Of a DNA stretch of 64,000 bases, positions 3,001 to 63,951 are shown piece by piece. Under the pieces are notes generated by a model. The model ran no database searches. It was not told where the DNA came from and was given only the letters and a program-made list of their open reading frames with translations. A program made the position numbers and the translations under genes. Position 1 is the first letter of the stretch. Every line of letters starts with the position of its first letter. The stretch is from an uncultured Bacilli bacterium (GTDB lineage: Bacteria; Bacillota_I; Bacilli_A; RFN20; CAG-826): contig CAKPNG010000001.1 in assembly GCA_934168325.1 (NCBI GenBank), positions 37,018-101,017 of the forward strand. The letters run 5' to 3'.

Positions 3001-5224
3001 TTATTTAGGTAATTAGAATGTAATTATTAATAAAACAGGTATTTCTATTTACAAGTCTAATGATACTTTTAAATCTGACCCTGTTTTCTATATTGATGAT
3101 AGTGGTAATGTAGTATTTAAAGGTAAATTAGAAGGTGCAACTGGTACTTTTTCTGGAGATTTAAAAGTTCTTAGATTAATTGTTGAGAAGAATCAAAATG
3201 AAATGGTGTTAAGTAGCACTAACACTTATGCTGAAATTACCCAACCTACTACATTGGAAAAAGCATATGGCTACTATTATGAGCCGAAAGCAGAAACTAG
3301 CTATACGGGTATAGGCCCTTATGAAACTACAAAAGATTTATCTCTTTTCTTAAAGCCTGAAAGTGGAGAAGATAATCGTGTTCTTAAAGATTATTGGTTC
3401 TTTGATAAAAAACCACTTTATCAAAAGGGATTTTATAGTTCTACGTTTTTTGATAGTAGCCAAAAATTAGGCTTCTTTATTGACCCAGAAACGGGTGCTA
3501 TTATTGCCAATCAAATTAGTTTAGGTTCAGCGAATTTAACAGAAAAACTTACACTTGGCGCTATTACCGGCACACCCGCTTATATTTATAATCCTGACAG
3601 TTATGAAAATAAGGTAATTGAAAGCGGGGCTTTAATAATTTATAATGATGGCAGAGCAACGTTTGGAGACACTTTGACGTTAAAAAAGGATTATGCTTAG
3701 TTTGGTTTAATTACCGTCGATGGAAAAAATTCTACTATATCTGGCATAAATCCTTATATAAATGGTATTAATGCCTGGACAATTGGCGTTGATCGAGATT
3801 TAGGTGGATTTGGACGCTTTAATTAGCTGACGGCAAACGCATTAAATGTAGAAACTGCGGTATTTGATACTGCATCGGCTCGACTTTCGGGCGGTATTAA
3901 TGTCTTTAAAAACGGTGTTTTAATTGAATCGGTTTCTTTAATTGAAAACCGCCCAGGGCATTATTTAGTTAAGTGTAAAGATAGCACCGCTCTGACTAAT
4001 GTAGCTTTAGATGATGTTGTATTTTTAACAAAAGAAAATATTAGTATATCTGAGCGTTATTCTAATGGAATGTATGGTACAATTACTGATGTTTATTAGG
4101 ATGAAAAATCTGGTTATTTTGAAGTTTTTTCTACTAATGCATTATCTGCACTTGATTTTGACTTTGCTTTAGTCTTAGGCAAAAAAACAAATACAAACAA
4201 ATTAAAAGAATGGATTATTGGAGTCAATGCAACAGCTCGTGATATTGATGCTTTAGGATTGAGGAAAAATTCTATTAGTTTTACTTCGGTTAAAAAAGAA
4301 GACGGAACTCTTAAATTTACTGATGAAGTTATTATTGGACAAATTCCTTTAAAAGTAATAGATCCTACGACTTATGCCACAAGTGAAGAAACAACTTCCG
4401 GTTTATATGCGACATCGGTATTTTTGACAGGAACTTTAACTACCCGCTATAATTCTGCTACTAATTAGAAATATGCAGGCATTAATACCTTAAGCTCAAC
4501 ACCATTTATGATTGAGCGAATGAGAGACAATGATACTAGTCCTATTGTCTTTTGGGCAGGCGCTGAAAGTACAAATTTTGAAGATATTCAAAAAGCTCCG
4601 TTCCAAATTAGTTCTAATGGTTCTCTTTACGCAAGCCAAGGATATTTTACTGGGTCGATTATCACTGATACTACAATTGAAGCTTCGAAAATCATCGCCG
4701 CGACTATTTTTGGCCGGGAGGATGGAAAAGCTTTAACAATTCAGGATGCTGATATTGGTATAGATTTTAATGATAGTGAAGGCAAAACTATCTTTTAGGT
4801 TGCTCGTGACCACTTCTATATTAATGAGGAAGTTAATAAAATTAATATTCCATCTATACATTTAACTAATCCAGAGTTAGCTTTTAAAGAAAATAGCATT
4901 TATATAGATTCGAGTAATATTTATTTTGGCAATATTTTAGAAAAAGTAGCAGGCTCTCATACAGAAGATGAGTTAAAAAATACTTTTTATTTAGAATCAG
5001 ATAAATCTGATTATTTTAATTGGGCAATTAAATTTGATAATAAAGTGGATGAATTACAATTCACTTATCATAATTTAATTTTAGCAAAAATGGCGAAAGA
5101 AGGACTAACTACTACTGAAAATTTCTATGTTAATAAAAATGTTCATTATAGTGATAAAGCAATTTTAGCTTAGAGATTAAATAAAGATAAATCAGTTGTT
5201 GGTTATGACTTATTTATTGAGTAA
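2..5224 (+). CDS. Giant virion structural protein (tail/host-interaction-like), 5'-truncated at window edge; requires about 25 in-frame TAG codons to be read as sense
   Basis: Listed ORF fragments 194-823, 830-1018, 1040-1981, 2504-2977, 3203-3700, 4259-4468 and 4508-4798 all lie in frame 2 and are separated only by TAG. I read the gaps codon by codon and found no TAA or TGA. Frame 2 is open from nt 2; the first TAA is at 5222-5224. Confidence 0.7.
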
Positions 5225-5239
5225 AAGGAGTAATAGTTA

Positions 5240-7687
5240 ATGAAATTTGAAGTAAAACATATATACGATAGCACGGTGGCGGATAAAAACGCCATCGTGG
5301 CTAACGCTTTACAATTTAATATAGTTGCTGGCTCTGATATAGAAACAACGCCATCAACTGCTAATACCTATAAATTTTATTATGGAGAGTCTACAGAAAC
5401 CGCAGAACCTTTTTTAATTACTAATTAGTTATCTACTAACTATTATTTTAAAAAAGATTAGTGGGAGAGTGAGAATACCTTAACTTTAGAGAGCGGAAAT
5501 AGATATTTTGACTGTGATAAATTAACTATTAAAGTATTTTTGCCTGCGACACAAGAACCACTTATTCTATCAACTGAACAAGAAAAAACACAAGAAGAAA
5601 ATCTTTCTTTAAGGCCTGAATAGGCAAAACTTGTGGCTTGGGTGTCTCCTTTGGTTTTAGTTTAGAAAGAAGGAGACTTTGAACGGCCCGCGAGCGTAGC
5701 TGAACTTGCTCAAAATTATGCTTTAAAATTAACCGCAATTAATTTAAGTATTAGTTCAACTAATTAGGAGTTTTCCCAATGGTCGCCAAAATTAATTAAC
5801 TATCATTATTGGTTAAATTAGGCCACTGATCAATATATTGATATACCAATCGCACCTCTTGCTTTTCCTTTAGAAATTGGGCATATAAATGAACAAAATA
5901 TTTTAGATAATTTTTCTTTTAATTTTACGCTTACTTTAGGGAAAAAAGATTAGACAGATTAGATTACCTTGTTAAATTTAAAAGGTAGATATTTAATTGT
6001 AAATCAAGGGTACTTATTTTTATAGCCTGAAATAGCGGATAATAATACTTATAAAATCATATAGACGAGTGCTAATAATGGCGAAACTTTAATAGCTTCT
6101 CATATTCAAATATAGGAAGCTAAGTTTTCAGAATTAATGTCTGGTTTATCTGCGGGCCGTGAAGATTTATTTGATTATCATATTTATTTAACAGTTGAGG
6201 ATTCTGAGAAAGACTCGAAAGTTGCGGGAGTCCAAGATTTTCAATATTTGACAACATTAAATTTGATATTTAGGGAAAAACCTTTTTTTAAAGGTAGGTT
6301 TAAAAATACGGATTTAACATGGACCTTAGACAAAAATGATTTAACAAATTATTCCTGGCACGATTTAATGAGTCCTCAATAGATTGTTGGTGATTATTTT
6401 TATAATGCGGGGGTTTCATTTAAATTTAATTTTGATAATGCAATGCCATAGTTATGCGGACAAAATTTGTAGAAATATGTCCTTTATGAGAGTGATGACC
6501 GCGGTATTCATTATTATAGACTATTGGAGCTTGATCCTAGCAAAGATAATTCAAATGAAGCTATTTATACTGTTATAAGACGTTCTGCCGCGGCGAATAT
6601 TCGTTATGGAATTGGTATTATTACAATAGACAAAAAGGGCTATTTATTAGAAACACCATTTGATAATATTTTAAAAATTAATTTAACATTGCCAATTGGA
6701 CGCATTTCAACGCCAATTGCACTTATTGATAATTGTATTGCTGATCAAATGGTTTTAAAACCACAGTTAAAAATTGTGGATTATGGTGGTAATAACCAAA
6801 AGGATTCTAATATTAGCAAATTGCCAAGTTTAGCAGGCTATTTTGGTTAGCAAGTAAATTTATCTTGCACAATTGAATTTGAATATAGTCAAAATAAAAA
6901 ATTTTTAAATTCCAAAAAAGTTACACAAATTATTACTTTAACAGAAGGCCAATCTTATTAGTCAATTAACTGGTCTAATTTATTTGATTAGAGCGGTTTG
7001 CCACTAGCTGATGAATCTGATTTATCTGCAACGCTTTATTTACGGGCAACACTGAGCTTTGTCTATGGTTGTCAAGATAACATTGATTTACTTATTTGTG
7101 AAACCCCAATTTATACTCATTTTGGGTTAAAGCAATTGCCAACAGTGTCCTATTTAAAAAATTAGATTGGTATTAATACTCCGAACTTAGCTAATAATGA
7201 AGTAATTGGAATTACTTCAACAACAGATAAAGCATTAATTCGTTTGTTAAATGGAAGTGAGCATTACTCTTCTCTAAATATTAATACTCGCAATTTACAA
7301 GAGTTTATAATTAATTGTGGAAGTTGGGATGATGCTGAATTTGGTTATACTAATTTTTAGGTCATTTCAAATTTATTGCAAGATGGTTCACCGCAAATTA
7401 TGAAATATGAAGCAGTTGAAGTTCCTGATATAAATGACACAACAGCAGTAGAAGCTTTTGAAGCCTTATGGAATTCATAGACTGACCTTTATGTTCGAGT
7501 TCAAGAATATGATGTTAATGGTAATTTAATTAACCGTGTAAATTATTCTAAAATTTATTTGAAAAAAGGCCATGACTGGAAAGAAGTATGTAAAGGTTTT
7601 ACTACAATTTATAAAATTACAAATAACCTATCTTATGGATGGTTTTATGATAAATCCCATTCAAAATTTACAGTTGTATAGGAGTAA
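5240..7687 (+). CDS. Large virion structural protein, TAG-recoded (about 815 codons)
   Basis: RBS aaggag precedes ATG 5240. Fragments 5240-5428, 6137-6382 and 6524-6850 plus unlisted short fragments are all frame 2, joined only by TAGs. Ends at TAA 7685-7687. Confidence 0.65.
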
Positions 7688-7702
7688 AAGGAGGAATAAA
7701 AT

Positions 7703-8569
7703 ATGGCAGATTATCAAAGTAGCTATACTGGTTCCGTTATTGACGAAGCTATTAGCAGAGCCTTAACTTTAACAAAATTAGATGGAACAGTATTAGAAAA
7801 TTAGAATGAAACTTATGTTGTTGTGGCGTCTAAAAAGGATGGTAATTTTTCTTATCATCCGCTTAAGTTTAGTCAAATGCCAGTTTAGGTTGTCCCGAAA
7901 GAAGAAGGATCGACAATAACATTTCAATTATTTACTATAAACGGGCGAGGCCCAGAGGAAAACAATCCTGGAGCTTATGTTCTTGATGCGGGCCGTATTC
8001 CTTATGCCGAGACCTTGACTGATGACCTTACGTTAAGAACAAATTCTGTATATTGGCATTTAAAAGATGTTATAGGCCGTAGTAAAACTACAGAAACTAA
8101 TTTAAGTAATCATATTGATAATAAACTCTTATTAAATGAATTGAATAAATTAGCGGAAAATGAGACAAAATTTTATCATATTGAGGGTAAAGTGTGTTAT
8201 AAATGGAATGATAGTATTGATAATGCTGATGAACATATAGCAGATAAAACTATACATTTAGCTCAAACAGATAGAGACTTATTAGCTGCTTGCCAAATCC
8301 ATTTAAATGACATAACTAAGACGGATAGTCCATTCCAATACCATTTAAGCGGAACTGACCGCACTTTTTTAACGAATCTTCAATCTACTGGAACAAATAG
8401 TATTATTGCAATACAAAATCAACTTGAAACTAAAATTGATACTGCTTTTGAAATTGGTTCAGTTCCCACTAACCAAAAGAAATTATGGATTGATACTGTT
8501 AATAATGTTTTAAAATATTATAACCCAACGAAAAAGGATTGGGTAATCGTTCCTGTAGCCTATTCGTAA
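7703..8569 (+). CDS. Virion-associated protein, TAG-recoded (288 codons)
   Basis: RBS aaggagga then ATG 7703. In-frame TAGs (e.g. GAA AAT TAG AAT). Joins listed ORF 8015-8569. Ends in TAA. Confidence 0.6.
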
Positions 8570-11143: not shown

Positions 11144-11180
11144 GCTGGGAGTATTTTTTACTCCCAGCTTTCTATTTTAT
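11144..11180. terminator. Bidirectional intrinsic terminator
   Basis: Stem GCTGGGAGT/ACTCCCAGC flanked by T-rich runs on both strands. Confidence 0.65.
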
Positions 11181-11892
11181 ATACCTTATTAAAAGTGTGC
11201 GAAGCATAATAACCAATACCTACGGCATCAGCTTCATCTTCTGATAAAGACACGTCATATTTATCTTTTGCTAATATTTGCATAGCTCTTTTGCGATCTG
11301 TCCGCGTTTTACCTTTAATTCCACAATAATTCCGCCAAGTCGCTGTATGACAAATTTCATAAGGAATTTTTAATTGGTAAACAGTATTAATTAAAACCCC
11401 TTGAAGCCAAGCCAGTTTTTGAAAAACTATCACACCCATTTGACGATTTTCACTTTTATCCTAAAGCTATATTCCTTCAAAAGCAATTAAGTCAGGTGAG
11501 TAATTAATAATCATTGAGTTCAGCCAAACTCTAATTTGGTTAATGCGGTCATCGTCATCACCACCGCCGGCTTCAAATATACCATATTTAACTAATTGTT
11601 CATTATCAAAAATAGCCCAGCCCGTTAAATGGCTTGCCTAATCTAATGCTAGTGTTCTTTTAACTCCTCTCGGCTTTGAAACAATTTCTTTTGTCATTTG
11701 CTTTAACTAATTCTATTGACAAATTGGACAAAAACGTTTATCTCGCTATTTTTTCCAAGTAGAGTAAACTTTATGTCCTTCATCGCACTCAAACACTAAT
11801 TCACTATCTAAATTCTTATATTCTTGAGAAATTAATTTCCATTTGTCCTATGTCAAAGTTTCTTTAATTTGCTCAATTGTTATTTTACTCAT
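11158..11892 (-). CDS. ruvC: RuvC-like Holliday-junction resolvase with N-terminal zinc ribbon; 7 in-frame TAG
   Basis: The C-terminal part is listed ORF 11158-11439 (..DEADAVGIGYYA). Extending upstream through TAGs gives MTKEIVSKPRGVKRTLALD*ASHLTGWAIF...IAFEGI*L*DKSEN, a RuvC N-terminus. Further upstream lies a zinc ribbon (FECDEGH...CPIC). The ATG at 11892-11890 overlaps the dUTPase TGA. Confidence 0.65.
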
Positions 11893-13140: not shown

Positions 13141-14415
13141 TCAAATTTTTTTGCGTAAAATTTGGTTTAAAATAAAGCCCAATACAATAGCGAGACTAAC
13201 TCCACTAAAAGCACTATCAAAAAGCCAAATCCCACTAACACCTACTGTCAATATGACAGAAACAATAATTAAATTTTTATTATCTTCTAAATCAACTTTA
13301 TTATTTAATAAAGTCTTAAGACCACTAGATGCAATATATCCATAAAGAATCATTGCACAACCGCCAAACACACAAGAAGGAATTGAATTAAAGAAGACTT
13401 GAATTGGTTCAAAAAAAGCAAGCCCGCCTAAAATTAAAGCAGATATTGTTGTTATTACTGTTGAAGCAACACGGCTAAAACCAATTGTTGCTATTGCCTC
13501 GCCATAGCTGGTATTAGGCAGTCCGCCCACAATTGAGCCAACTGTTGAAGCGATACCATCACCTAAAAGTGTTTTGTAAAGTCCTGGTTTTTTTGTTAAA
13601 TCAGTTCCAATTATATTCGATAATACTTTATGATCTGAACAATGCTCCATCGCCGAAGCTAAACTAACAGGGACAAATAGTAAAATAACTTTACCAATTG
13701 TTGCCCAGTTAAGTTCTGAAAAATTCCAATTCATAAAAGTTAATTGAGGAAATTTAAATAAACTAATTCCTCTAAAGGCTTCAAGATCAATAAGTGAAAT
13801 AACACCACTTATAGTCAAAATTAAACTTACAATATAACCTGCAAAAATACCAATTAAAAAAGGAATTGTTTTCCAAAAGCCTTTAAAATAATGTGAGCTA
13901 AGAGCTACTACAAACATAACAAAAATTGCAATAACTACACCAATTTCAGACTGTTCTCCATTAACTTGGACGTAAGTCGGGATAAAACCCGCAAGATTTA
14001 CACCAATTACAATTGTAATAGCTCCAATTATTGTAGGCGGGAATAATTTATTAAAGCTATCCTGTCCTTTTATTTTAATTAAAAGAGCCAATAATCCATA
14101 AACAATTGCAATAACTACACCACCAATTGCAACTGCCAAGTAATTGGGAGCTGCGCCGATTGCAAGAGCACCTATAACTGCGGAAACTGTAGCTCCGCAA
14201 GAAGAAATCAACATTGGAGATTGACCTTTGGTAATTAACTGGTAAGTTAAAGTGCCAAGACAAGCACCAAGCAAACACGCATCAATAGGTGTTCCGCAAA
14301 TATTAGCAATTAAAATTGTTGCAACAATACAACTCGACACCATTTGGAGTGGGTAAAGCGCCCACTCTTTTAGCGTTTTTGGCTTTTCATTTATATCATA
14401 AAGGAGATTTTTCAT
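13141..14415 (-). CDS. NCS2-family nucleobase permease (uracil/xanthine permease-like)
   Basis: About 12 TM segments. Motifs LFPPTIIGAITIVIGVNLAG and GLPNTSYGEAIATIGFSRV match the UraA family. Confidence 0.8.
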   Translation of the reverse strand: MKNLLYDINEKPKTLKEWALYPLQMVSSCIVATILIANICGTPIDACLLGACLGTLTYQLITKGQSPMLISSCGATVSAVIGALAIGAAPNYLAVAIGGVVIAIVYGLLALLIKIKGQDSFNKLFPPTIIGAITIVIGVNLAGFIPTYVQVNGEQSEIGVVIAIFVMFVVALSSHYFKGFWKTIPFLIGIFAGYIVSLILTISGVISLIDLEAFRGISLFKFPQLTFMNWNFSELNWATIGKVILLFVPVSLASAMEHCSDHKVLSNIIGTDLTKKPGLYKTLLGDGIASTVGSIVGGLPNTSYGEAIATIGFSRVASTVITTISALILGGLAFFEPIQVFFNSIPSCVFGGCAMILYGYIASSGLKTLLNNKVDLEDNKNLIIVSVILTVGVSGIWLFDSAFSGVSLAIVLGFILNQILRKKI

Positions 14416-14516
14416 TAATCAAATTCAACCTCCTTTTCTTTTATAAAGGCAATTACTTCTTCAATTGAAGAAACAAGGACACCACTTTGTTTAATAATGC
14501 CCGTCACAAAAATGTT

Positions 14517-14930
14517 CTAATAACTATACTGTTGTTCACCGAGAGAACTTGCTCCGCCCGCATCTTTAGCGTCGCTATGAGTTAAATAACACTGACGGTT
14601 ATCAGTACAAATTCCAACTATATATTTATGATCACCGCGGCGAATTTTTTCTCTCATTATACCAATTTCTGAGCAAGTTCCACTTGGAAGGACATCGCCA
14701 TCAATGCACGCTACAAGAATGTCAGTATTATCAAGTCTTGCACAATCAGCGTTTGCAATCATTTGAGAATCTGCAAACTTCTTTTTCCCTTCAACACCAT
14801 TAATCTCGGTGTTTTGAAGGGGGTCATAAATATCGGCTGTTGGGAAAGCTTCAGTTAGTTTTTCAAAAAAATAGTCATTGCGAAATTTATCACCTAAACA
14901 AAAAATTCCGCCAGCTAAATAAATTTTCAA
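14517..14930 (-). CDS. Nucleoside 2-deoxyribosyltransferase-like protein
   Basis: TTG start after RBS aaggagg. Motifs YLAGG..F and SGTCSEIG (catalytic Glu). Ends in TAG, followed by a 33-codon open extension. Confidence 0.5.
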   Translation of the reverse strand: MKIYLAGGIFCLGDKFRNDYFFEKLTEAFPTADIYDPLQNTEINGVEGKKKFADSQMIANADCARLDNTDILVACIDGDVLPSGTCSEIGIMREKIRRGDHKYIVGICTDNRQCYLTHSDAKDAGGASSLGEQQYSY

Positions 14931-26745: not shown

Positions 26746-27770
26746 TTTCTAATGGCCCGGACTATATCTTAAATGGTTTTATATAACCACCTATAACCGT
26801 TTCGAGTATCTTACCACTAGATACCCTACTCTAAGATTGACCTTAGATAGTCTCTACAGGTTTTATAAAGAGAGTTTATTAATTTCCGCAAATTGATCGG
26901 CAGTAATGCGGATAAATTTATATTTTCGTTCACATCTATTATTCTAACAGATGCTACTATAAATTTTATTATATGTAGTATTATATTTTTCTGTAAAACA
27001 CCGAATAGATAAAGAAGTATCTTCAATTTGACCAGTAGTTTCATTAATCTTTGCTACGCAACATTTAAATCGAGCTAAAAAATTTTTTAACCATTTTTCT
27101 TTTTCGTTTTCTTTTATCCAATAATAACCATGATGTGCTTGCCCAGTATTACTTGCTTTTTGTATAGCACGAAAATCAACTCCAGTATTCCTACAGGCAT
27201 CCCGGAAGCCCTTATGAATAGCAATTAAATGAAACTAATATCCATCAAAAGAATATTGCAAAATATTATCATATTTTGCCTAATGAGTTTCTTTTAATTT
27301 TTCTATTACTTGTGGGCTATAAACTGGATTTAATTTTCCACCCTCTAAGATATTATATGATGTAGTTGCATGAGTCTACTGTATTAAATCATATTCATGC
27401 TAATAAGCTAGTTCTTCAGTAGAATCTAAAATTTCAAATACTTCGAAATTAAAAGCCGACTTTCCATATTTATTATAATCATTTTGTATTTTATAATTAG
27501 GATGCGTATGGCTTTTTAATTTACGAAAATGCTAATGTTCTCGTTTTTTTGGATCAGTTGTAATACCAATATAAAAACTGCCATTTTTTATATTAGTAAT
27601 TTTATAATAATAAAATTTCATAATTAAACTCCTTTATAATTTCCCACGGTATTACCATATCCCATAAGGACTTAGGCTCTCTTACCACCTTAATCTTTCG
27701 ATTTAGTTGACCGTTAGCCATTTAAATAAATGACCCCGCTGGTAAACGGAAAAGTTATATATACGACAAA
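26746..27770 (-). mobile_element. About 1 kb insertion in dnaB carrying a GIY-YIG homing endonuclease (group I intron-like or intronless split)
   Basis: The DnaB reading frame breaks about 18 codons before the stop of ORF 27714-29945 and resumes in ORF 26257-26727. The endonuclease gene fills the gap. Boundaries approximate. Confidence 0.5.
26863..27622 (-). CDS. GIY-YIG homing endonuclease, 6 in-frame TAG
   Basis: RBS aaaggag then ATG 27622. MKFYYYKITNIKNGSFYIGITTDPKKREH*H... with YNILEGG. The ORF track shows only a frame-shifted C-terminal fragment (26826-27044). Confidence 0.7.
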
Positions 27771-35698: not shown

Positions 35699-37548
35699 TA
35701 TTCTACCTCAAATTTTGAAAAATCTATATTATTATAAACAAATTCTTTTCTGGGTTCAACATCCTCACTCATAAGAGATATTAACGTATTAATTCCTTCT
35801 TCACTATAAACAATAGGTTCAAGATGTTGCCATTCTTCATTAAACATAGACGCCTTTAAATCATTATCACTCATTTGACCAAGGCCTTTAAAGAAAGTAA
35901 TATTACCTTTGGGATGATTCCTAAATTCTTCTTCATTATAATAAAAATAAGTTTTTTTAGGAGTTTCTACTTTACAAGTCGGTGCCCGCAACCAAAAAAG
36001 CCGATTTTCTTTTAAAAATTCCGGCGCCAGAACCTGAAGCATTGCCATTAACAATAGGCCTATATGACTGCCATCAAAATCGCCATCAACAGCCAAAGCT
36101 ATTTTTCCATATCGAAGTTTATTTGCATTATAAGGTCGTCCGTAAGTAATACCTAACGCTTGCAAAAGTAATTTTACTTCTTCATTAGCCAATCCTTCCT
36201 CAATAGTTGCTTTTAATAAATTTTTTGCTTTTCCACGAAACATTAACACGCCATACCGATTAGGGTCTCTTCCAATTGACATGGATCCGCCAGCCGAGTT
36301 TCCTTCTACACAAAGCAGTATACTATCTTTTCCTAATTTTCGTGCATCGCGCAATTTATCGAAATTTAAGAGCTTTTTCTTTTCATTAACTTTTTGTTCT
36401 CTTTCATGGTTTAAAATTGCTTGGCGAGTCTTTTCGGCTGCTTTTTCTGCCTTTTCAATTTTTGTTAACAACTCGATTACGTTATTAAATTCTGTGCGGT
36501 GATGACTATAAAATTCTTTTAAGCAATTAGAAATAGCAAAAGAAGTTGCAGTTCCCGCTTCTTTATTTGCCAAAGCCGTTTTTGCTTGATTAGAAAATTG
36601 TCCAACATGGACCTTAACTGAAACAAATCCCTCAAGACATTCCCTAATTTGTTCGCCTGTAAATTTGGCTTTTGCTAAAGAATTAAAAGTTCTTGTCAAG
36701 GAAGTCTTAAACGAACTAATAAAAGCTCCGCCATCAGGCATATAAAGACCATTGGCATATCCTCGAATATTCCCTTTTTTTGCAACCCATTGTAAAGCTA
36801 ATTCCACTTGACAATCTGAATCATTATAAAAATAATTAAAGGGTTTACTAATAGCTTGTTCATTTTTTAATCCATCAATTAATCCATTCTTAGAAAAGAA
36901 AATTTCACTATTCCCATCAATAATAAGAATAATCTTTAAACCTTTAGTAAAATAAGACATCTCTCTAAGCATCTTTTTTAGATTATTTTCATCAATAAAA
37001 ATATTTCCATATACTCGTTCATCTGGCTCATAGGTAATGATAGTGCCTGTTATTGTATCTTGAGCTTTTGAAGTTTTTACTTCACACACTGGTTTAGCCC
37101 CTTCCTCTGAGCTTTCAAATCGCTGAAAATAAATATTCCCATCTCGATGAACTTCTACCTCAAGCCATTTGGCAGTATGACATACCACTTTATTTCCCTC
37201 ACCGTTGATACCCACCGAACTAACATATGAACCTTCTTTATGCTTCGCTCCAGAATGTGGTAAAAGAAAGGCTGCGGTAAGTGAATTAATACCATCATCT
37301 CTTACAGCGCAAGGTATACCTCGCATATTATCAGAAACACGAATTTTTCTTTCAGTAGTAAATAATTCAATTTTTAAACAAGGGTTTTCAGGTTTATATA
37401 CTTCAAACTCATCTTGAACATTAACAATAAGTTCTCGTAAACCCAAATTAATTGCTTCTTGTCTATCTGCACTAAGATACATCCCAATTTTTTCTCTAAA
37501 TGCACGGCCTGGGGATAGAGTGGTTAAATCATTCGCTGAATAACTCAT
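35698..37548 (-). CDS. Type IIA topoisomerase ATPase/TOPRIM subunit (GyrB/ParE/T4 gp39-like)
   Basis: GHKL N-terminus and TOPRIM CVEGNSAGGS. Confidence 0.8.
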   Translation of the reverse strand: MSYSANDLTTLSPGRAFREKIGMYLSADRQEAINLGLRELIVNVQDEFEVYKPENPCLKIELFTTERKIRVSDNMRGIPCAVRDDGINSLTAAFLLPHSGAKHKEGSYVSSVGINGEGNKVVCHTAKWLEVEVHRDGNIYFQRFESSEEGAKPVCEVKTSKAQDTITGTIITYEPDERVYGNIFIDENNLKKMLREMSYFTKGLKIILIIDGNSEIFFSKNGLIDGLKNEQAISKPFNYFYNDSDCQVELALQWVAKKGNIRGYANGLYMPDGGAFISSFKTSLTRTFNSLAKAKFTGEQIRECLEGFVSVKVHVGQFSNQAKTALANKEAGTATSFAISNCLKEFYSHHRTEFNNVIELLTKIEKAEKAAEKTRQAILNHEREQKVNEKKKLLNFDKLRDARKLGKDSILLCVEGNSAGGSMSIGRDPNRYGVLMFRGKAKNLLKATIEEGLANEEVKLLLQALGITYGRPYNANKLRYGKIALAVDGDFDGSHIGLLLMAMLQVLAPEFLKENRLFWLRAPTCKVETPKKTYFYYNEEEFRNHPKGNITFFKGLGQMSDNDLKASMFNEEWQHLEPIVYSEEGINTLISLMSEDVEPRKEFVYNNIDFSKFEVE

Positions 37549-38333: not shown

Positions 38334-39413
38334 TTAATCCCACTCCTGAATTTTCTTCGCGGCGCCACGTCGTTTTGACAGCCAAAACAAATTTTTCTTT
38401 GCTCTAGTAATTGCAACATAATTTACAAAAATTTCATCACTGTTCCATTTATTAATTGCTCCATAAACCACAACATTATCAGCTTCAAGTCCTTTTGCAC
38501 TATGAATTGTTAATACTTTAACTGAATTTTTTTCCATTAACTCATTTAAATGAGCAACGGTCATATTTTTCATTTTAAAAGTATCATTAGGAATTTCATA
38601 AACATTTAATAGAGCTTGCATTTCTTCAACCTAACGATTAGAACGACACAAAATAAACCAGCTTTTATAATCTCGCTTATTTTTAATTTGTTGAATTAAT
38701 TTTAAAAAAGAACTCCAATTAATAAATTGAACAGTTCCACTATTTTCGGTCATTGCCCGCGAATCATCTCGATAATCCCAGCCTTTTTGTGCAATTGTTT
38801 GCTTCGCGAAAGAAAGAATTTGTTGTGCATTTCTATAATTTTGTGTTAATTTAAAAACAGAAACATCTGGCTGTTGCATAATACGAAGCAACATATCAGG
38901 ACGACTCCCATTAAATTGATAAATTGTTTGTCGTAAATCGCCAATTAACATAAAATTTTTTGGTTTAATCATATCAATTAAAAAGTCAAATTGCTCGGCG
39001 GTGCTGTCTTGAGCTTCATCAAGAAACAAATATTGAACTGGCTGAATGCAATTAGGGTGTAGTCTAACCATTTCAAAAAGTTTATCAAAATCTTCGTTTT
39101 CTACAGCTTCGGAAACATCATAACCACAACACTTTAACAAATATGAAGCATAACTATGAACTGTTGAAATATGAATACCTTTTGGATTTTTTAATCGCCG
39201 TAAAATATTATCAGCCGCCAAATTTGTAAAAGTAATTGCAACAATTTGACTTGGATGAATATGCCGCTCTTCAATTAACCATCTAATTCTTTCTGTTAAA
39301 CAATGTGTCTTTCCAGCAGCGGCGGCGCAGAGAATAACAGAATAAGGCTTGGTTGTATAGACTACTTCTTTTTGCTCCAAACTTAATTCCATTTTAACCA
39401 CCTGCCTTTTCAT
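38334..39413 (-). CDS. UvrD/PcrA-like helicase, continuous only through one in-frame TAG (38631-38633)
   Basis: N-part Walker A CAAAAGKTH and TFTNLAA (motif Ia). After TAG then V-E-E, the same frame continues into ORF 38334-38621 with motifs V/VI (HSAKGLEADNVVV, VAITRAKK). Confidence 0.7.
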
Positions 39414-46288: not shown

Positions 46289-47293
46289 ATGGCTAATACT
46301 GAATTTAATGTAAGAATTTAGTTAAAGCGTGATACTGATGCAAATTGGCGAGCAAAAGATCCTCAATTATTAGCAGGCGAAGTTGTTTTTGTTGATACGA
46401 ATGCGGGCGAAGTAAGAACTAAAGTTGGCGATGGAACTAAAAAATATAGTGCATTACCTTTTATGGATGAGGTATTAAGAAACCTCATTTCAAATACAGA
46501 ACATTTATTTAAAGTAAGGGCTGTTTGCGACTTAGCTGGTGATACAACTACGCCAACAACAATTTTAGAACATGAAGATATTGGTGAGATTCTTTCTGCT
46601 GCAATAGATACTACTCGGCCAGTGGTAGCAGAAATTCAGTCATAGGACAATGAATACGATAAATTATGGCTACCATTAGTTTATTTTAATCCTGATAAAG
46701 AAGAAGCTAGTTTTATAGGGCCTCTTAGTGCAAGCGCTTGGTTTACATTAGAGTTTACAAATGGAGCTTGGTTTTTTGGACGAATAGACTTAGCAAAATT
46801 AACTGATATTCCAACAAAACTTTCTCAGCTTGAAAATGACACTAATTACCTTAATTCTGATACAAACTTTGTTCATAAAACAGGTGATGAAGAAATTAAG
46901 GGAATAAAAACTTTTGAAAGTTCTATCGTTTGCTCTATGACACCAGGCAATGAAAATCATTTAGTTAATAAAAAATATGTTGATAATAAAGTCGGCACTT
47001 ATTTACCTCTTGCGGGCGGTAAAATGACTGGTAATATCCAAATGAATAATAAGGAAATTACACAAGCCGCGAAAATAGGGTTTTTAAGGGGAGCGTATTT
47101 TGAAAGTTCAAATATATAGCAACAAAATGTAATTTCTGCTTTTACTTCTGGTGGTAGTACTCTTGCTTATCTTAATGCTTATGCTCAAACTCCAAAAGCA
47201 ACTGATAACGTGATGGTTCTCGCAAATAAAGAATATGTCGATAAAAAAACAACAGTCCTGTTAAAAACTTGGACTTCTGCCGATATTAGTTAA
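46289..47293 (+). CDS. Tail fibre paralog 3 with collar-like motif; 3 in-frame TAG
   Basis: MANTEFNVRI*LKRDTDANW... joins ORFs 46463.. and 46937... Contains LPLAGGKMTGNIQMNNKEIT. Ends in TAA. Confidence 0.65.
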
Positions 47294-47296
47294 ATT

Positions 47297-47324
47297 TGAC
47301 TTTTAACTAAAATTATGTTATAAT
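47297..47324 (+). promoter_or_regulatory. sigma70-like promoter
   Basis: TTGACT-N16-TATAAT. Confidence 0.5.
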
Positions 47325-47349
47325 AAATTTAACTAAAAGGAGAGATAAA

Positions 47350-48171
47350 ATGGCAACTGAACAAACTTTAACTACTTTAATTATAAATGAAGTAGATAGT
47401 AAAGAAACATTTAATAAAATGAAAGCATAGGGTTTGATTAATGAAAAGGAACTCTATTTAACACCAGAAGAGGCTGCAGAACATCAAATTAAAGTTCAAA
47501 ATGATGAACCTACTAATGCTGTAGCTAATGATTTATGGCTTGATTTAGATGAAGATGCTCCAGCTTCTTTACCAGTTAGTGGCGGTACTTTAACTGGTCC
47601 ACTAGCTATGAGCAACAATAAAATTACAGGAGTAGGAGATCCTACTTCTGCTCAAGATGTCGCAACAAAAAATTACATTGACATTTCCTTTTTAGCTTTA
47701 AGCGGTGGCACAATTAATGGTGATTTAGTACTTGGCCCTACGAGTTCTTTAAAATTTTAGATTGGAAACTCAGCTTTTACAATAAAAGCAGGTGGTCAAG
47801 GCTTATTGGTTCCTGCTCCAATTTTTATGACCGCTCAGGGCAATCCTTCAACATAGACTGCCTTAGTAACTATGGGACAATGTACCGAGGCATTTGCGCC
47901 AAAAATAGCTAGTGTTAGTGCAAGTGGAGCAATTAATCAAACTTTAGTAAAAAATAGAGATTATACCTTTACTTCTGTTTCTTCTTTAAATTTAACAGCA
48001 GGAACTGGCTCCTGTCATGGATTCATAACTTTTGGTAGTTCTACACCTACTGTTTCGCTTTCAGGTTTTACAAAAGTAGATGGTGATATAGCTAATGCTG
48101 CGGCTTCAACGGTTTGGGAATTTTCTTGTTATAATAAATATGCTGTGTTTAAGAACTGGAGTGAGGTGTAA
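47350..48171 (+). CDS. Tail fibre-like protein; 3 in-frame TAG
   Basis: SGGTLTGPLAMSNNKITGVGDPTSAQDVATKNYID. N- and C-terminal regions are paralogous to the 52434 gene. Confidence 0.65.
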
Positions 48172-50326: not shown

Positions 50327-51664
50327 ATGAATTTTGAAGATTTTCAATTATTAGAAGATAGACACCATGAAGAATATAGTAGTGAAATGATGAGAATTTT
50401 TAGGTTAAAACATATTCCTAAAACTATTACTTTTCAAGTTACAGAGGACTGTTGTCTATCCTGTATTTATTGCTATCAACACGCTAAAAAAAAGACGCAC
50501 ATGACTCCAGAAATAGGTCACGCTGCGATTGATTGGTTATTAGCTTCTACACCAGAAAATAATCCATATATAAATCCTGAAAATTCTCCTGCAATAATAA
50601 TTGACTTTATTGGCGGAGAGCCTTTAATGGAAATTGATTTAATTGAAGATTTAATTTGCTATTTTAAAAGACGCACAATTGAATTAAACCATCCATGGGC
50701 TTTCCGCCACAGATTTTCAATTTGTTCTAATGGAGTTCTTTATTTTGATCCACGCGTACAATCTTTACTTCAAAAATATGGAAATGAAATTAGCTTTTCG
50801 ATTTCAATTGATGGTACAAAAGAATTGCATGATGCTTGTAGAGTTTTCCCCGATGGACGCGGTAGCTATGATATTGCAGTTAAAGGAGCATTACATTATC
50901 AAAAGCATTATGGACATGGAGCTATTGGTAGTAAGATGACATTGGCTCCAGAAAATATTAAATTTACTTGTTCCGCAGTAGAAAATTTATTAAAGCTAAA
51001 CTATAAGTCAATTAACTTAAATTGTGTTTTTGAGGAAGGTTGGACTAGTAAAGATGCATTAATTCTTTACCAGCAACTCAAAAAAATTGCAGATTTTATG
51101 ATAGAGAAAAAACTTTATAAAGATACAACAATTTCAATGTTTTCTTTGCGGTGCGGGCATCCTTTAGATAAAAAAGACAATGAAAATTATTGCGGAGGAG
51201 CGGGTCAAGGTGGAATGATGGCAATTAACTATTTAGGTAATATTTATCCTTGCCTCCGTTATATGGAAAGTTCAGTAGGAGATAACCAACCGCCGATGAT
51301 AATTGGCAATATTTTTGAAGGAATTGGCACACATTTAGAAGAACAAAAAAGATTAAAACTTTTGAATGCAGTGACGCGACGCTCGCAATCTACTGATAAA
51401 TGTTGGACTTGTCCAATTGCGAGCAATTGCGGTAATTGTTCAGCATATTCTTATGAAAAATTTGGAACACCTGATCATAGGGCAACTTTTATCTGTCCTA
51501 TGCACATTGCAAGGGTATTAGCTAATGTGTATTATTGGAATAAAGTGTTTCAACAAGAGAATATAGAAAAAAGATTTTGGAATTTTGTGCCTAAAGAATG
51601 GGCACTTGATATTATAGATGAAAATGAATTTGATTTATTAAATAAATTAAGTGGGGTGTTTTAA
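50327..51664 (+). CDS. Radical SAM/SPASM-domain peptide-modifying enzyme (anSME-like)
   Basis: CLSCIYC (CxxxCxxC), GGEPL and a C-terminal SPASM cysteine cluster CWTCPIASNCGNC...FICP. Confidence 0.85.
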   Translation: MNFEDFQLLEDRHHEEYSSEMMRIFRLKHIPKTITFQVTEDCCLSCIYCYQHAKKKTHMTPEIGHAAIDWLLASTPENNPYINPENSPAIIIDFIGGEPLMEIDLIEDLICYFKRRTIELNHPWAFRHRFSICSNGVLYFDPRVQSLLQKYGNEISFSISIDGTKELHDACRVFPDGRGSYDIAVKGALHYQKHYGHGAIGSKMTLAPENIKFTCSAVENLLKLNYKSINLNCVFEEGWTSKDALILYQQLKKIADFMIEKKLYKDTTISMFSLRCGHPLDKKDNENYCGGAGQGGMMAINYLGNIYPCLRYMESSVGDNQPPMIIGNIFEGIGTHLEEQKRLKLLNAVTRRSQSTDKCWTCPIASNCGNCSAYSYEKFGTPDHRATFICPMHIARVLANVYYWNKVFQQENIEKRFWNFVPKEWALDIIDENEFDLLNKLSGVF

Positions 51665-58688: not shown

Positions 58689-59927
58689 ATGAAAGAAATT
58701 AACTGCCCCGCTAGTGCCCAACTTATGATGATGCCAATGATGAGTGGCACTATCGCGGCGGGCTTTAAGAATAAAAAATATTAGGAAGCTTATAAATTTC
58801 CTCACTATGGCGTTGATTTTGATAGTCGATATGGTGAAGATTTTAAAGTGGTGGCTTCTGGTAACGGAACAGTAATTGGGGTTGAGAAAAACTTAAACAA
58901 TTCTTTAGGTTGTATTTGTGTTATATAGTATGATAATGTTTATAACCCGACCACTAAAAAAATTGAAAGTTATGTGTTCCGCTATTATCATATGGCTTAG
59001 CTTTATGTTAAGAAAGGCGATAAGGTAAAAGCTTATGACCAATTAGGACAAGTAATTAATCATAAGTGGTGGAATCATGTCCATGTAGAAATTGATTCCG
59101 ATATTAAATATCCTTTCTATACCCCGCAGGTTGCAGAAAAATCTTCAGCATTGTTAATTAGAAAAGGTGCGACTGATTCCTCTTTATTAAACCCTATGAC
59201 GGTGTTAGTTGTTGGAAGGCAGCAATCTATGATGGTTCATAATTTGGCTATTTATGCGGACCATACATCTGATGCTCCTCGATTTGTGGAAGGGTTGCCC
59301 GCGCCAACAATTCCAACTGAACCTAAACCGCAACCTAAACCTCAAGTTCAAGTTCAAGACAAAACCTTACCTATTCTTCCAATTAATGACGCAAAGCTGA
59401 CTTGTGGCTATAAAAATCCACTTTACTATCAGCAATATGGAATTAGACATTATGGTTGCGATTTAGTTTCTGTCTCGAACAAACGAGAAATTTATGCGTC
59501 AGCGGATGGTAAAGTAATCGCTGCGGGCTGGGATGGGACTAATACTCCAGCCTATCCAAACGGTAATAACTCAGGTTGTGGTTATGTTCTTATAATTGTT
59601 TATCCAAACATTAAAATCAAAGGGACGCAAAAAACTGGAGCCACTTTCACTTATCTTCACTTAAAAGAGCAACCAGTTGTAAAAGTTGGCAGCCAAGTTA
59701 AACAAGGACAATTATTAGGCTATTATGGAGATACTGGTTCAATGGTATTTGGTGCTCATTTGCACTTACAAATAGATACGGATACAAAATATCCTCAATA
59801 TTGTATGGGAATGGGTAGCGGGCATCGTATTTTAAAGCATGGCACAGTAGATAGCACAGTTAATCCTATGGATATTCTTTATTTAGGAAAAAATCAATCT
59901 ATCATTGGCGGGCGCTATCCCGCGTAG
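58689..59927 (+). CDS. Peptidase M23 (LytM) with two M23-like domains; 3 in-frame TAG
   Basis: C-terminal domain ..GDTGSMVFGAHLHLQID; N-terminal domain ..WWNHVHVEID. Joins listed ORF 59151-59927. Confidence 0.7.
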
Positions 59928-60078
59928 TATGACAGAAATGACCTGCAAAAACTTGAAAAAATTTAAAAATTGTTATATAATAATTATAGAAAAGTTGAGA
60001 GAGCAATAAACTTTTTTGTGTTAGTTTTAACGAGTGCGCTGGCGGGCCGCGTAGTAGTCCGCTAAAGTTATCTCTCAG

Positions 60079-61625: not shown

Positions 61626-61702
61626 GAGGCGGTAGTCCAACGGCAGCAGACAATGGACTTAAAATCCATCAAGTGAGGGTTCGAATCCCTCTCGCCTTAC
61701 CA
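61626..61702 (+). tRNA. tRNA with anticodon UAA (Leu-like) and a short variable arm
   Basis: Acceptor GAGGCGG/TCGCCTT with A73 and CCA. T arm GAGGG-TTCGAAT-CCCTC. Anticodon stem ATGGA/TCCAT with loop CTTAAAA. Confidence 0.55.
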
Positions 61703-61985
61703 TTAGGTTTTTCAACCTACCCTTAAAATTGAGATTAGAATAAAACACAAAGATGATGCTTTGAAGTATAAAAGCGGTCCGCACTTTTAGTAAGATTTTT
61801 TAATTATATAAATCCTATTTTATCCCATTATTTCTTGGAAAGGAGCAGAAAAATGGATAAGCGTATATTTAAGAAAACTGGTGAAGAACTTCAACAGTAT
61901 CTAGCATTTAAGCGAAAACATTTTTTTGTTCCCGCCAAGAAAGGAAAAGGTTCTTTTAAAAGGCAAGAAAAACATTCAAAAAATT

Positions 61986-62059
61986 TCGAGAACGTAGTGT
62001 AATGGTAGCACCTTTCATTTGGGATGAAAGAGAGTGGTTCGAGTCCAACGTTTTCGACC
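61986..62059 (+). tRNA. tRNA-Pro(UGG)-like with irregular T-stem
   Basis: Acceptor CGAGAAC/GTTTTCG with A and CCA. D-arm TAGTGTAATGGTAGCAC. Anticodon stem TTTCA/TGAAA with loop TTTGGGA. GGTTCGAGTCC T-loop. Confidence 0.45.
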
Positions 62060-62205
62060 ATCAGTTCTTTTAGAAAAGGAGTGAAGCCTATGATTGTATT
62101 TGAAAGAATAAAGGAAAAGGACAGTCCGCCTAAAAGATGAGACTTGTTGAGAGTCGGTAAACTATCAACTCAGTTTTGTAGTTCTGAATAAAAACTACAA
62201 AGTAT

Positions 62206-62282
62206 GGCAATATAGCTCAGTTGGTGGTAGCATTTGACTGTTAATCAAAGGGTCAAGAGTTCAAGTCTCTTTATTGCCTCCA
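62206..62282 (+). tRNA. tRNA-Asn(GUU)
   Basis: Acceptor GGCAATA/TATTGCC with T and CCA. Anticodon stem TTTGA/TCAAA with loop CTGTTAA. T arm AAGAG-TTCAAGT-CTCTT. Confidence 0.7.
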
Positions 62283-62357
62283 TGGGGTGGCTTCGCCCTG
62301 ACTATATAAAAATGAAGCTTGTGGGCATATTTTCTATTCAAAAAGTGCCCATTTTAT

Positions 62358-62429
62358 CGGATAATAGTTCAACGGGAGAACAAAGAGGTCGCGCCTTTTA
62401 TGGTAGTTCAATTCTACCTTATCCGACCA
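62358..62429 (+). tRNA. tRNA, anticodon read as CGC (Ala?), compressed variable region
   Basis: Acceptor CGGATAA/TTATCCG with A and CCA. D GTTC-AACGGGA-GAAC. T GGTAG-TTCAATT-CTACC. Anticodon loop GTCGCGC. Confidence 0.45.
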
Positions 62430-62534
62430 TTTTCATTATCGTGTATTGATGATGGAAACTCCTATATTCGGTGTTATTTCCGAATTTAACTGGTCTTTGG
62501 GTATTTCCCAGTCCAAGAAATAACCATTCGCTGT

Positions 62535-62608
62535 GGTTTAGTAGTTTAATGGTAGGATAAAGCTCTTGTAAAGCTTAGGCAACAGTCCGATTTTGTTCTA
62601 AACCTCCA
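62535..62608 (+). tRNA. tRNA-Thr(UGU)
   Basis: Acceptor GGTTTAG/CTAAACC with T and CCA. Anticodon stem AAGCT/AGCTT with loop CTTGTAA. Confidence 0.6.
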
Positions 62609-62740: not shown

Positions 62741-62812
62741 GGTCCGGTAGTTTAATGGTAAAACGCTCTCAGGCACGAGAGAAATAGGATGTTCGAATCC
62801 CTAAAGACCTCA
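62741..62812 (+). pseudogene. Degenerate tRNA-like element
   Basis: Good D-arm (GTTT-AATGGTA-AAAC) and GTTCGAATCC T-loop, but the acceptor and T stems do not close and the anticodon loop is 6 or 8 nt. Confidence 0.3.
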
Positions 62813-63587
62813 TAAGTGAAGCGATTTGTAGGTGTTAAATTTCCTGCTCCTTGAGTGGAAACCTTCGGCGTTGTGATTAGTCGCCTTATCTATCCAAGAT
62901 ATTTCCCATATTCACTTGTAAAAGAATATGGGAACGCGTTAAGCCTAAAGTTATAATCATAACGTATCTTAGTGAAGAACGAATACCATCGTGCTAAGAA
63001 ATAACCCCGTCCGCGATAGGGACGCAATACATAAGTCGATTTGAGGGATACTTCAATTAGACTAAGGTTAAACGGCGTGAGCTGTCCGACTAGACCAAGG
63101 CTGAACTGAGGTCCGTGCAGGGTTATTGTGCTAATCTAATCGCTCTTAAAAGCATTGTCTCATCGCTCTCACAATAGAAGCTTTAGTGAATAGCTGAAGC
63201 TGAACCCAAGAAGACGGTCGAGTGGCATCGCCCGCAATCGTTGGGAAAGCCAATAAGAGAGTTTGTCGTGAAGTTGAAGAAATTCAATGTATAAGATGAG
63301 GTCAAAGTACGAGTAGTCCAAGACAAAGACTTCCCGAATTTTAATGGGGGACTATTTAATAGGTAAATAAATTGCTTTACTTTTCTGAATGGTGGATGAA
63401 AGTTTGTCGTAATCAATCGACGAAAGGTTTGTTGTTGCTAGTGCAACATAGGGCAAGAACTTTTGTCAAGACGTTGGCAAGGGTCAGACTTGTCTTCCTT
63501 TTGGCTGAATATAAGAGAAGATTATGTGAGGTAAGGCGAAGGCCTACGATTGTGGTTATAATTTTAGGTTTAACCTAAAAACTTAAA
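62813..63587 (+). other. About 0.8 kb noncoding, hairpin-rich region inside the tRNA cluster (unclassified ncRNA or intron-like)
   Basis: No ORF over 60 codons. Perfect 9-bp hairpin CCCATATTC..GAATATGGG at about 62905-62935. GACTA/TAGTCC elements. Ends at the intrinsic terminator. Confidence 0.3.
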
Positions 63588-63626
63588 CCGCTCTTTGGGT
63601 TATCAGAGCGGGCATCTTTTTCTTTA
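63588..63626 (+). terminator. Intrinsic terminator
   Basis: CCGCTCT-TTGGGTTATC-AGAGCGG then GCATCTTTTTCTTT. Confidence 0.7.
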
Positions 63627-63672
63627 TTGGGATTTTTTTTGCTCTTTTTAGAAAAATAAAGAGCCGGAATAT

Positions 63673-63746
63673 TGGAGGTTCGTTCAATAGTAGGACTCAT
63701 CTCTCTAAAAGATGGAATCGCGGTGCAAATCCACGGCCTCTAGCCA
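63673..63746 (+). tRNA. Amber suppressor tRNA, anticodon CUA, Gln-like identity
   Basis: Acceptor TGGAGGT/GCCTCTA (U1-A72) with G73 and CCA. D GTTC-AATAGTA-GGAC (G10). Anticodon stem CATCT/AGATG with loop CTCTAAA (CTA at 63705-63707). T CGCGG-TGCAAAT-CCACG. Confidence 0.65.
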
Positions 63747-63876
63747 TGACAGCTTTGAAAGTTCCCCTGTCAAAAATAACAAGAACTTTCAGAAATCGCG
63801 GAGATGGAGAAAAAGAGTCTCGCAAGGGTCATTACCTTGAAATCAGTTATGGCAGTAATAACCTCCGCACCCATAC

Positions 63877-63951
63877 GGTCCCATCATCTAATGGCAAGGA
63901 TATAACCTTTTCACGGTTAAAATATGAGTTCAATTCTCATTGGGACTCCCA
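63877..63951 (+). tRNA. tRNA-Glu(UUC)
   Basis: Acceptor GGTCCCA/TGGGACT with C and CCA. Anticodon stem TAACC/GGTTA with loop TTTTCAC. T ATGAG-TTCAATT-CTCAT. Confidence 0.65.

Follow-up and report, generated by a model that had tools for sequence, protein, structure and literature searches.

A probable glutamine-inserting amber-suppressor tRNA in a TAG-recoded phage genome on contig CAKPNG010000001.1

The stretch of DNA analysed here (the window) is 64,000 nucleotides long and corresponds to positions 37,018 to 101,017 of contig CAKPNG010000001.1, from an assembly of an uncultured Bacilli bacterium (GCA_934168325.1). It has a G+C content of 33% and covers about half of a phage contig of 128,549 bp (128.5 kb) from an ENA metagenome assembly. 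Near its end, at 63673-63746 on the plus strand, lies a 74-nt tRNA gene with anticodon CUA, an encoded CCA end and a body of the tRNA-Gln type, hereafter called type A. The anticodon occupies 63705-63707, within the loop CTCTAAA (U33, A37), and starts at tRNA position 33 in the ARAGORN count. Upstream on the same strand are five tRNA genes called by ARAGORN and Rfam (Leu-UAA, Pro-UGG, Asn-GUU, 'Ala-CGC' and Thr-UGU; 61626-62608) and, directly before the gene in the cluster, a ROOL RNA (62944-63565; Rfam RF03087, 280.4 bits). The next gene downstream, also called by both programs, is tRNA-Glu(UUC) at 63877-63951 (+). ARAGORN reported the CUA tRNA as one of seven plus-strand tRNAs between 61626 and 63951. 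The Rfam family RF00005 matched 63673-63743 along model positions 1-71 without gaps; its score of 33.6 bits exceeds the gathering threshold of 29.

An earlier note on this DNA had described an amber-suppressor tRNA with loop CTCTAAA and a full cloverleaf at this position. The tRNA gene and its fold were confirmed by the ARAGORN call at the same coordinates, by the full-length Rfam match and by RNAfold, whose minimum free energy (MFE) structure is the cloverleaf. The stems have 7, 4, 5 and 5 base pairs, and the anticodon and T loops have 7 nt each. The acceptor strands UGGAGGU and GCCUCUA form U1-A72, G2.U71 and G3-C70 at their outer end, and are followed by U8 C9 and by the D arm GUUC-AAUAGUA-GGAC, which begins with G10. 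After a single U come the anticodon arm CAUCU-CUCUAAA-AGAUG, the variable loop GAAU and the T arm CGCGG-UGCAAAU-CCACG; the molecule ends with G73 and CCA. The sole non-standard pair in the Rfam alignment is C51.A63, in the T stem. Thus U1-A72, G73, G10, the encoded CCA and the single C.A mismatch, all listed in the earlier note, are present in the sequence. The tertiary nucleotides U8, A14, G19, U33, U54, C56 and A58 are also there. Covariance with related tRNAs, which the same note had proposed as a check, supports the stems: across 11 related Gln-type tRNAs, 93.5% of the stem cells are paired and 14 pairs are changed on both sides, and none of 500 shuffles reached this.

When TAG is read as a sense codon, long frames appear in the window that the standard code splits. 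Among the 33 genes tabulated, 10 have 2-22 in-frame TAG codons, 22 have none and one, encoding a UvrD-like protein, has a single TAG; in the 10 recoded genes, TAG accounts for 16-45% of the TAG, CAA and CAG codons taken together. The recoded genes include three structural or tail genes (2-8569, +; 15, 22 and 2 TAG), of which the largest has 1740 codons with 15 TAG and another 817 codons with 22 TAG. In relatives, the corresponding sites are mostly TAG or CAA/CAG. At 46289-48171 (+) lie two genes for tail fibres, one of which encodes an Mtd_N domain; each carries three TAG. The M23 peptidase gene, for lysis (58689-59966, +), carries four. The RuvC-like resolvase gene (11158-11892, -) has seven and a GIY-YIG homing-endonuclease gene (26863-27621, -) has six. 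TAG-free genes include those for PolIII alpha, ribonucleotide reductase, both topoisomerase II subunits, RecJ, helicase, ligase and RNase H. The description of the recoded genes as late genes holds for tail, fibre and lysis genes, which are TAG-rich, replication genes being nearly TAG-free, but it is too narrow. Recoding extends beyond classic late genes to the RuvC-like resolvase and the GIY-YIG endonuclease, both on the replication-gene strand. The latter gene is recoded though surrounded by TAG-free replication genes.

Stop codons in the 33 genes are TAA (27 genes) and TGA (6 genes), never TAG. Recoding of TGA was considered and rejected, since this codon still serves as a stop. The single TAG of the UvrD-like helicase gene (38334-39413, -, on the replication-gene strand) lies after 260 codons, and read-through would give 359 amino acids; it may be a sense codon or a regulated stop of early infection.

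The amino acid at TAG was assessed in the RuvC-like protein, for which 67 full-length homologues were available and 63 were used. Three close homologues, P0001-P0003, were excluded because their DNA is untranslatable in the standard code, so that the Gln shown at their TAG sites was assumed by the gene caller. P0061, a 90%-identical fragment and presumably recoded too, was dropped as well. The 63 retained homologues are not known to be recoded: one (L006) was checked at the DNA level, and entries from JGI and NCBI are, as a rule, called with the standard code. Gln occupies the TAG column in 63 of 63 homologues at an LDQS motif and in 62 of 63 at an EGIQ motif. In three further columns it is found in 42, 31 and 30 of the 63, the last column also holding 30 Glu. 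Over all seven TAG columns, Gln makes up 54% of the cells, compared with a background of 4.9%. The log-likelihood is -9.6 for Gln and -24.4 for the runner-up, Glu, a difference of about 15 units. In the standard-code relative L006, Gln at the RuvC TAG sites is encoded by CAA or CAG.

L006 and L007 are Logan contigs representing a relative (RuvC homologue P0010, 52% identity) with the same gene order around RuvC and a stop-free structural gene of 1212 codons. Since this relative uses the standard code, the phage group comprises members with and without recoding. PHROGs gave no family for the heavily recoded proteins of 1740, 817 and 289 amino acids, and these could therefore not be compared with standard-code homologues.

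Codon comparison with three recoded relatives led to the same assignment. TAG stands opposite TAG 36 times; of its 62 substitutions, 35 involve CAA or CAG (31 CAA, 4 CAG), six a Glu codon and three a Tyr codon. CAA is the commonest partner even though it lies two base changes away from TAG, which fits synonymous exchange rather than mutational proximity. Against L001, three of the four differences are CAA or CAG, and the M23 peptidases of L009, L010, L145 and L146 show the same exchange pattern. From these alignments, TAG in this phage reads as equivalent to Gln, as had been proposed.

The body of the tRNA was compared with cellular tRNAs through its 17-nt D arm (UCGUUCAAyrGUAGGAC), which was scanned in one genome per bacterial species and gave at least 120 loci, 117 of them usable and bacterial. 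The counts that follow apply among the matches listed. The D arm belongs to tRNA-Gln (CUG or UUG) in 93 of the 117 bacterial hits, and 91 of these 93 have the same 74-nt architecture as the phage tRNA. In the 91 listed tRNA-Gln, U1 and A72 each occur in 90, G73 occurs in 70 and A73 in the remainder, and the variable loop consists of four nucleotides, NNAU, as does GAAU here. Other tRNAs that share the D arm (Gly, Trp, His and others) start with G or A, except for two hits that have no tRNA fold. The first pair, discriminator, variable loop and length were not used in the search and thus agree with tRNA-Gln independently. By these characters, the phage tRNA has a body of the bacterial tRNA-Gln type, from which it differs by its CUA anticodon, G55, A18 and G2.U71. 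Outside the D arm, the best match is a Lachnospiraceae tRNA-Gln(UUG) (L043; 31 of 50 positions).

Identity elements were judged against the E. coli glutaminyl-tRNA synthetase (GlnRS) set. U1-A72, G73, G10 (D stem GUUC/GGAC) and G3-C70 are present. The anticodon-loop set (C/U34, U35, G36, A37, U38) is represented by C34, U35 and A37. Position 36 is A, which is obligatory for any amber suppressor, and position 38 is A rather than U, as in 56 of the 91 listed bacterial tRNA-Gln. The E. coli suppressor supE (glnV/glnX) is a tRNA-Gln(CUG) with its anticodon changed to CUA. The phage tRNA has U1-A72, G73, G10, G3-C70, C34, U35, A36 and A37 in common with supE, so that charging by GlnRS and insertion of Gln at UAG would be expected. 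Unlike supE, it is phage-borne, would be needed for normal gene expression, and has G2.U71, A38, A18, G55 and a T-stem mismatch. On sequence, its fit to the E. coli set is good but incomplete: the tRNA-Gln identity suggested earlier is borne out by the D arm, first pair, discriminator and variable loop, and departed from at G2.U71, A38, A18 and G55.

The same genome encodes a tRNA-Gln(UUG) at 14259-14332 of L005, 510 nt past the window end. It has U1-A72, A73 and an aberrant T loop, GCCAGCA, together with the D arm and length of the suppressor; it is overlooked by ARAGORN but reaches 45 bits with Rfam. L001 and L010 keep the gene with compensatory changes. With both genes, the phage supplies decoders for CAA/CAG and for UAG. 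An origin of the suppressor by duplication of this gene was rejected: once the shared D arm and the anticodon loop are set aside, the two genes match at just 19 of 50 positions. JGI metagenome contigs (L137-L144) contain eight further CUA tRNAs whose D arm is that of tRNA-Gln. In each of them, G73 is combined with U1.C72 or U1.U72, so that the first position is left unpaired, a state that E. coli GlnRS is known to favour. A rule of covariation between A18 and G55 was also considered; L141 fits it, but the tRNA-Gln(UUG) of L010 has A18 with C55, and the rule was dropped.

Related phages carry different genes at the site between ROOL and tRNA-Glu, hereafter the slot. All relatives examined hold a CUA-bearing tRNA gene there, and all have in-frame TAG. 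In L009, whose neighbouring protein has 88% amino-acid identity, the 74 nt are identical to those of the window. Homology between the two starts a few bases before the tRNA; the upstream sequences are unrelated and the downstream flanks nearly identical. As the downstream flank is conserved to this degree as well, the identical 74 nt are weak evidence of constraint. A second allele, A2 (L146 and L147), is 80% identical, with the same anticodon arm and D stem. It has the canonical G18 G19 and U55, a T loop UUCAAAU on a perfect T stem, G2-C71 and A73. A2 differs from the window allele by double compensatory changes at pairs 4-69, 6-67 and 52-62, which supports selection on the fold. Since A2 is canonical, A18, G55, G2.U71 and C51.A63 would be derived in the window allele. 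The tRNA at 63673-63746 is more than a chance fold: it stands in a tRNA cluster, has an identical copy in L009 with a different upstream sequence, and an 80% identical copy in L146 and L147.

Allele B (13511-13585 of L001 and 13067-13141 of L010) lies within the same flanks and is about 50% identical to the window allele. Its first pair is U1-A72, its T stem contains a bulge of one nucleotide, and G19 and C56 are replaced by A19 and U56; between L001 and L010 it shows compensatory changes of its own. It resembles CUA tRNAs annotated as tRNA-Gln in the crAss-like phages cr272_1 and cr273_1 (NC_055903 and NC_055904; 79% over 50 nt). In L145 and L148 the slot gene is different again, even though a neighbouring protein is the same as in L146. 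This allele C (10879-10975 of L145, 5341-5437 of L148) is 97 nt long and folds into five arms (MFE z = -2.4), two of them of the anticodon type with loops CCCUAAA and CUCUGAA. ARAGORN interprets it as a CUA tRNA whose extra arm is long, and Infernal as a tRNA-Gln(CUG) with a 25-nt D-loop insertion (52 bits). There is a parallel with supE, as the loop of its CUG anticodon arm differs from the window loop at position 36 only.

Several observations weigh against a fully active Gln suppressor. The tRNA has the weakest Rfam score (33.6 bits) of the cluster, and its folding energy is no better than that of shuffled sequences (z = -0.65), so that folding energy alone is uninformative here. The conserved tertiary set is incomplete, with A18 for G18 and G55 for the near-universal U55, and neither G55 nor A18 is found in any of the 91 listed bacterial tRNA-Gln. 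Pair 2-71 is G.U instead of G2-C71, as in one of the 91. Together with C51.A63, these features are all absent from A2, so that the window allele could be impaired. Two of the seven RuvC TAG columns are variable, one with mostly Pro and the other with mostly Ile. A promoter scan, itself at chance level (7 found, 6.7 expected), placed no site ahead of the gene, and a terminator-like hairpin (63588-63628) lies upstream of it. Finally, the part of the 128.5-kb contig that was inspected amounts to 70.6 kb, and other suppressors, release-factor genes or synthetase genes may lie in the rest.

These points raise the possibility of a decaying or weakly active allele, with UAG decoded by a suppressor elsewhere in the 128.5-kb genome or in a co-infecting relative. 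The low Rfam score and the defects derived relative to A2 (G55, A18, C51.A63 and G2.U71) would be explained, and about 58 kb of the contig lie outside the part examined. Moreover, phAss-1, a 136-kb TAG-recoded gut phage, has three suppressor tRNA genes (PMC10607447). On the other side, the stems differ from those of A2 by compensatory double changes and not by random decay. The tRNA at 63673-63746 is the only CUA tRNA within the 70.6 kb, and the slot holds a CUA-bearing gene in all relatives. The unchanged 74 nt in L009, despite an unrelated upstream sequence, also speak weakly against decay. We consider an inactive allele of this kind unlikely.

A functional tRNA might also insert an amino acid other than Gln: Glu, if a non-discriminating glutamyl-tRNA synthetase (GluRS) charged it and no amidation followed, or Trp, Lys or Tyr by mischarging. 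The tRNAs for Gln and Glu are related, and GlnRS is missing from many Firmicutes. The RuvC column with 30 Gln and 30 Glu, the six substitutions of TAG to Glu codons and the partly matched Gln identity set (G2.U71, A38) would be consistent with this. However, the almost invariant Gln columns (63/63 and 62/63) and the lead of about 15 log-likelihood units over Glu argue for Gln, as does the predominance of the two-change exchange between TAG and CAA (31 CAA and 4 CAG of 62). Moreover, U1-A72, G73, the D arm and the variable loop are those of tRNA-Gln and not those of the tRNAs for Gly, Trp or His with the same D arm. Insertion of another amino acid is therefore quite improbable.

ARAGORN labels the gene tRNA-Pyl. 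The CUA anticodon agrees with a pyrrolysine tRNA, and RNAfold adds a U26.G44 pair, giving an anticodon stem of six pairs and a variable loop of 3 nt. Nevertheless, two nucleotides (U8 C9) and not one separate the acceptor and D stems, the D loop has 7 nt and not 5, the D arm is of tRNA-Gln type, the TAG columns are Gln and not Lys-like, and no PylS- or PylBCD-like domain was detected among the 34 window proteins scanned. The label was rejected, as it reflects the anticodon only and the 6-bp stem is mimicked solely by the optional U26.G44; a pyrrolysine tRNA has hardly any probability left. A tRNA-like fold arising by chance and without function, to which only the folding-energy z of -0.65 would point, is equally negligible given the agreement of two independent tRNA detectors, the position in a tRNA cluster, the covariation with which it is kept in relatives and the need of the genome for a UAG decoder.

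Altogether, the explanation that we favour, with a probability of about 0.8, is that 63673-63746 encodes a functional phage amber-suppressor tRNA that would insert Gln and is built on a bacterial tRNA-Gln scaffold. The main doubt concerns the full activity of an allele with G55, A18 and a T-stem mismatch, together with a possible second suppressor in the remaining 58 kb or so. Transcription would take place together with the rest of the plus-strand tRNA/ROOL cluster, and processing would give a tRNA of 74 nt, its CCA end being already encoded. Host GlnRS would then charge it with Gln; charging by a non-discriminating GluRS followed by GatCAB is less likely with a C34 anticodon. In a host without GlnRS, charging of a CUA anticodon through GluRS and GatCAB is doubtful, which also counts against our explanation. 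The charged tRNA would read UAG in competition with host release factor 1, and read-through would yield full-length tail and tail-fibre proteins, M23 lysin, RuvC-like resolvase and homing endonucleases. Among the window proteins scanned, none showed a release-factor or synthetase domain. Save for the one UvrD-like TAG, the replication genes are TAG-free and could be translated before the suppressor accumulates. Timed expression of the suppressor is plausible according to the known models for such phages (bioRxiv 10.1101/2021.08.26.457843).

An intrinsic terminator just upstream of the tRNA had been proposed in connection with such timing. A terminator-like element is indeed present at 63588-63628 (+), at the 3' end of ROOL: a GC-rich hairpin of 7 bp, CCGCTCT-(10 nt)-AGAGCGG, spans 63588-63611 and is followed by a U-rich tail. 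The consensus terminator scan passed over it because its 10-nt loop exceeds 8 nt. A different hairpin with a U run occupies the same site in L001, L145 gives an ambiguous picture, and no such hairpin is found there in L009, which lacks ROOL. As it follows ROOL, has an equivalent in L001 and is missing from the ROOL-less L009, it is best read as the terminator of ROOL; the proposal thus stands as to the presence of a terminator-like hairpin, and changes as to the gene it belongs to. A second, AT-rich hairpin, GCTCTTT-(10 nt)-AAAGAGC (63641-63664, +), ends 8 nt before the tRNA 5' end and is kept in L001, L010 and L145 with G.U or compensatory changes. ROOL itself is present in L001, L010 and L145, and a GIY-YIG gene takes its place in L009. 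RNAs of the ROOL class occur near tRNAs and in prophages (PMC5737381).

Further tRNA-like elements were noticed in the cluster. At 63798-63873 (+), a sequence detected by neither ARAGORN nor Rfam has a clean cloverleaf as its MFE structure (z = -2.4), with an acceptor stem of 6 bp and ACCCA as its end. Its anticodon loop is GUCAUUA (CAU), and its T loop, GGCAGUA, is not canonical. L001 and L009 carry the element almost unchanged (one substitution), MT839702.1 (L003, 2003-2080) has a counterpart with compensatory changes in the acceptor and T arms, and L010 has a normal tRNA-Met(CAU) in its place. ARAGORN calls the 'tRNA-Ala(CGC)' at 62358-62429 (+), and Rfam reports it (45.9 bits) only when its filters are relaxed; the L001 equivalent is found by Rfam and missed by ARAGORN. 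A weak tRNA-like match of 23 bits lies at 62741-62810 (+). Elsewhere in the window, auxiliary genes were found at 13141-14415 (-), 14415-14930 (-) and 50327-51664 (+). Counterparts of the 424-amino-acid auxiliary protein carry xanthine/uracil permease domains in relatives. A radical SAM enzyme and a nucleoside deoxyribosyltransferase-like protein are also encoded in this set, and L005 has a 'tSAM target' gene with Cxxx repeats further downstream.

The variety of slot genes led us to a more tentative reading, less likely in our view than not to be right, in which the site from ROOL to tRNA-Glu is a hypervariable 'suppressor slot' whose UAG decoder has been repeatedly exchanged and re-invented. 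At least four Gln-type genes (A, A2, B and C) occur there, with breakpoints essentially at the tRNA boundaries and endonuclease genes alongside, a pattern that may be explained in this way. The window allele with its A18/G55 elbow might then be one outcome of the turnover. GIY-YIG genes stand directly beside the slot in L009 and L145-L148, which suggests turnover by, for example, endonuclease-driven co-conversion. Host tRNA-targeting defences or differences in host GlnRS could exert pressure on the slot. Homing-endonuclease genes (GIY-YIG, HNH and NUMOD) are abundant in the relatives L131-L135, L009 and L145-L148, where they interrupt the genes for ribonucleotide reductase and permease and are crowded in the tRNA cluster.

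A precedent for this arrangement is found in phage T4, the tRNA cluster of which contains the GIY-YIG homing endonuclease SegB. Here too, endonuclease genes lie inside the tRNA cluster, adjoining the suppressor in L009 and L145-L148, and tRNA alleles differ between near-identical phages, as endonuclease-driven co-conversion would predict. Unlike T4, the window has no endonuclease gene adjacent to its tRNA, and any homing here is putative.

Recoding of TAG to Gln in late genes, together with a phage CUA tRNA, is already established in gut phages, including crAss-like, Lak and several Firmicutes-infecting clades (bioRxiv 10.1101/2021.08.26.457843), and was shown by metaproteomics in crAss-like phages (PMC9523058). 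Like other gut phages that use code 15 (crAss-like, Lak, Jade/Sapphire/Agate/Topaz and phAss-1), the present phage has its own tRNA-CUA with TAG read as Gln, concentrates TAG in structural and lysis genes and lacks it in replication genes, has no synthetase gene in view, and combines low GC with a genome of about 130 kb. It differs from them in not being close to any deposited phage. The nearest annotated relatives are SPbeta-like Bacillus phages, with 39% amino-acid identity in PolIII alpha. The phage may belong to one of the metagenomic code-15 clades, and weak hints in the sequence point to a host among the Bacillota. The suppressor tRNA gave only chance hits by blastn against 50,697 phage records (INPHARED), and exact-pattern scans of IMG/VR for the anticodon arm and for the D arm with the CUA loop returned nothing. 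A scan for the conserved flank recovered only this same contig, and blastn of the whole tRNA cluster found generic tRNA similarity only. The parts that look new are confined to the suppressor turnover between near-identical phages and the five-armed variant.

The favoured explanation would provide a concrete decoder for the TAG-recoded genes of a phage of about 128 kb that is a distant relative of the SPbeta-like phages. For annotation, the phage should be translated with code 15; otherwise the tail, lysis, resolvase and homing-endonuclease genes look fragmented. To the code-15 literature, these results would add a fast turnover of suppressor genes between near-identical phages, and an allele that keeps working stems yet alters the normally invariant G18/U55 elbow contact. 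If this is true, the slot genes would constitute natural variants for examining how far GlnRS and the ribosome tolerate changes in amber suppressors, and possibly show how phages keep their suppressor from host defences.

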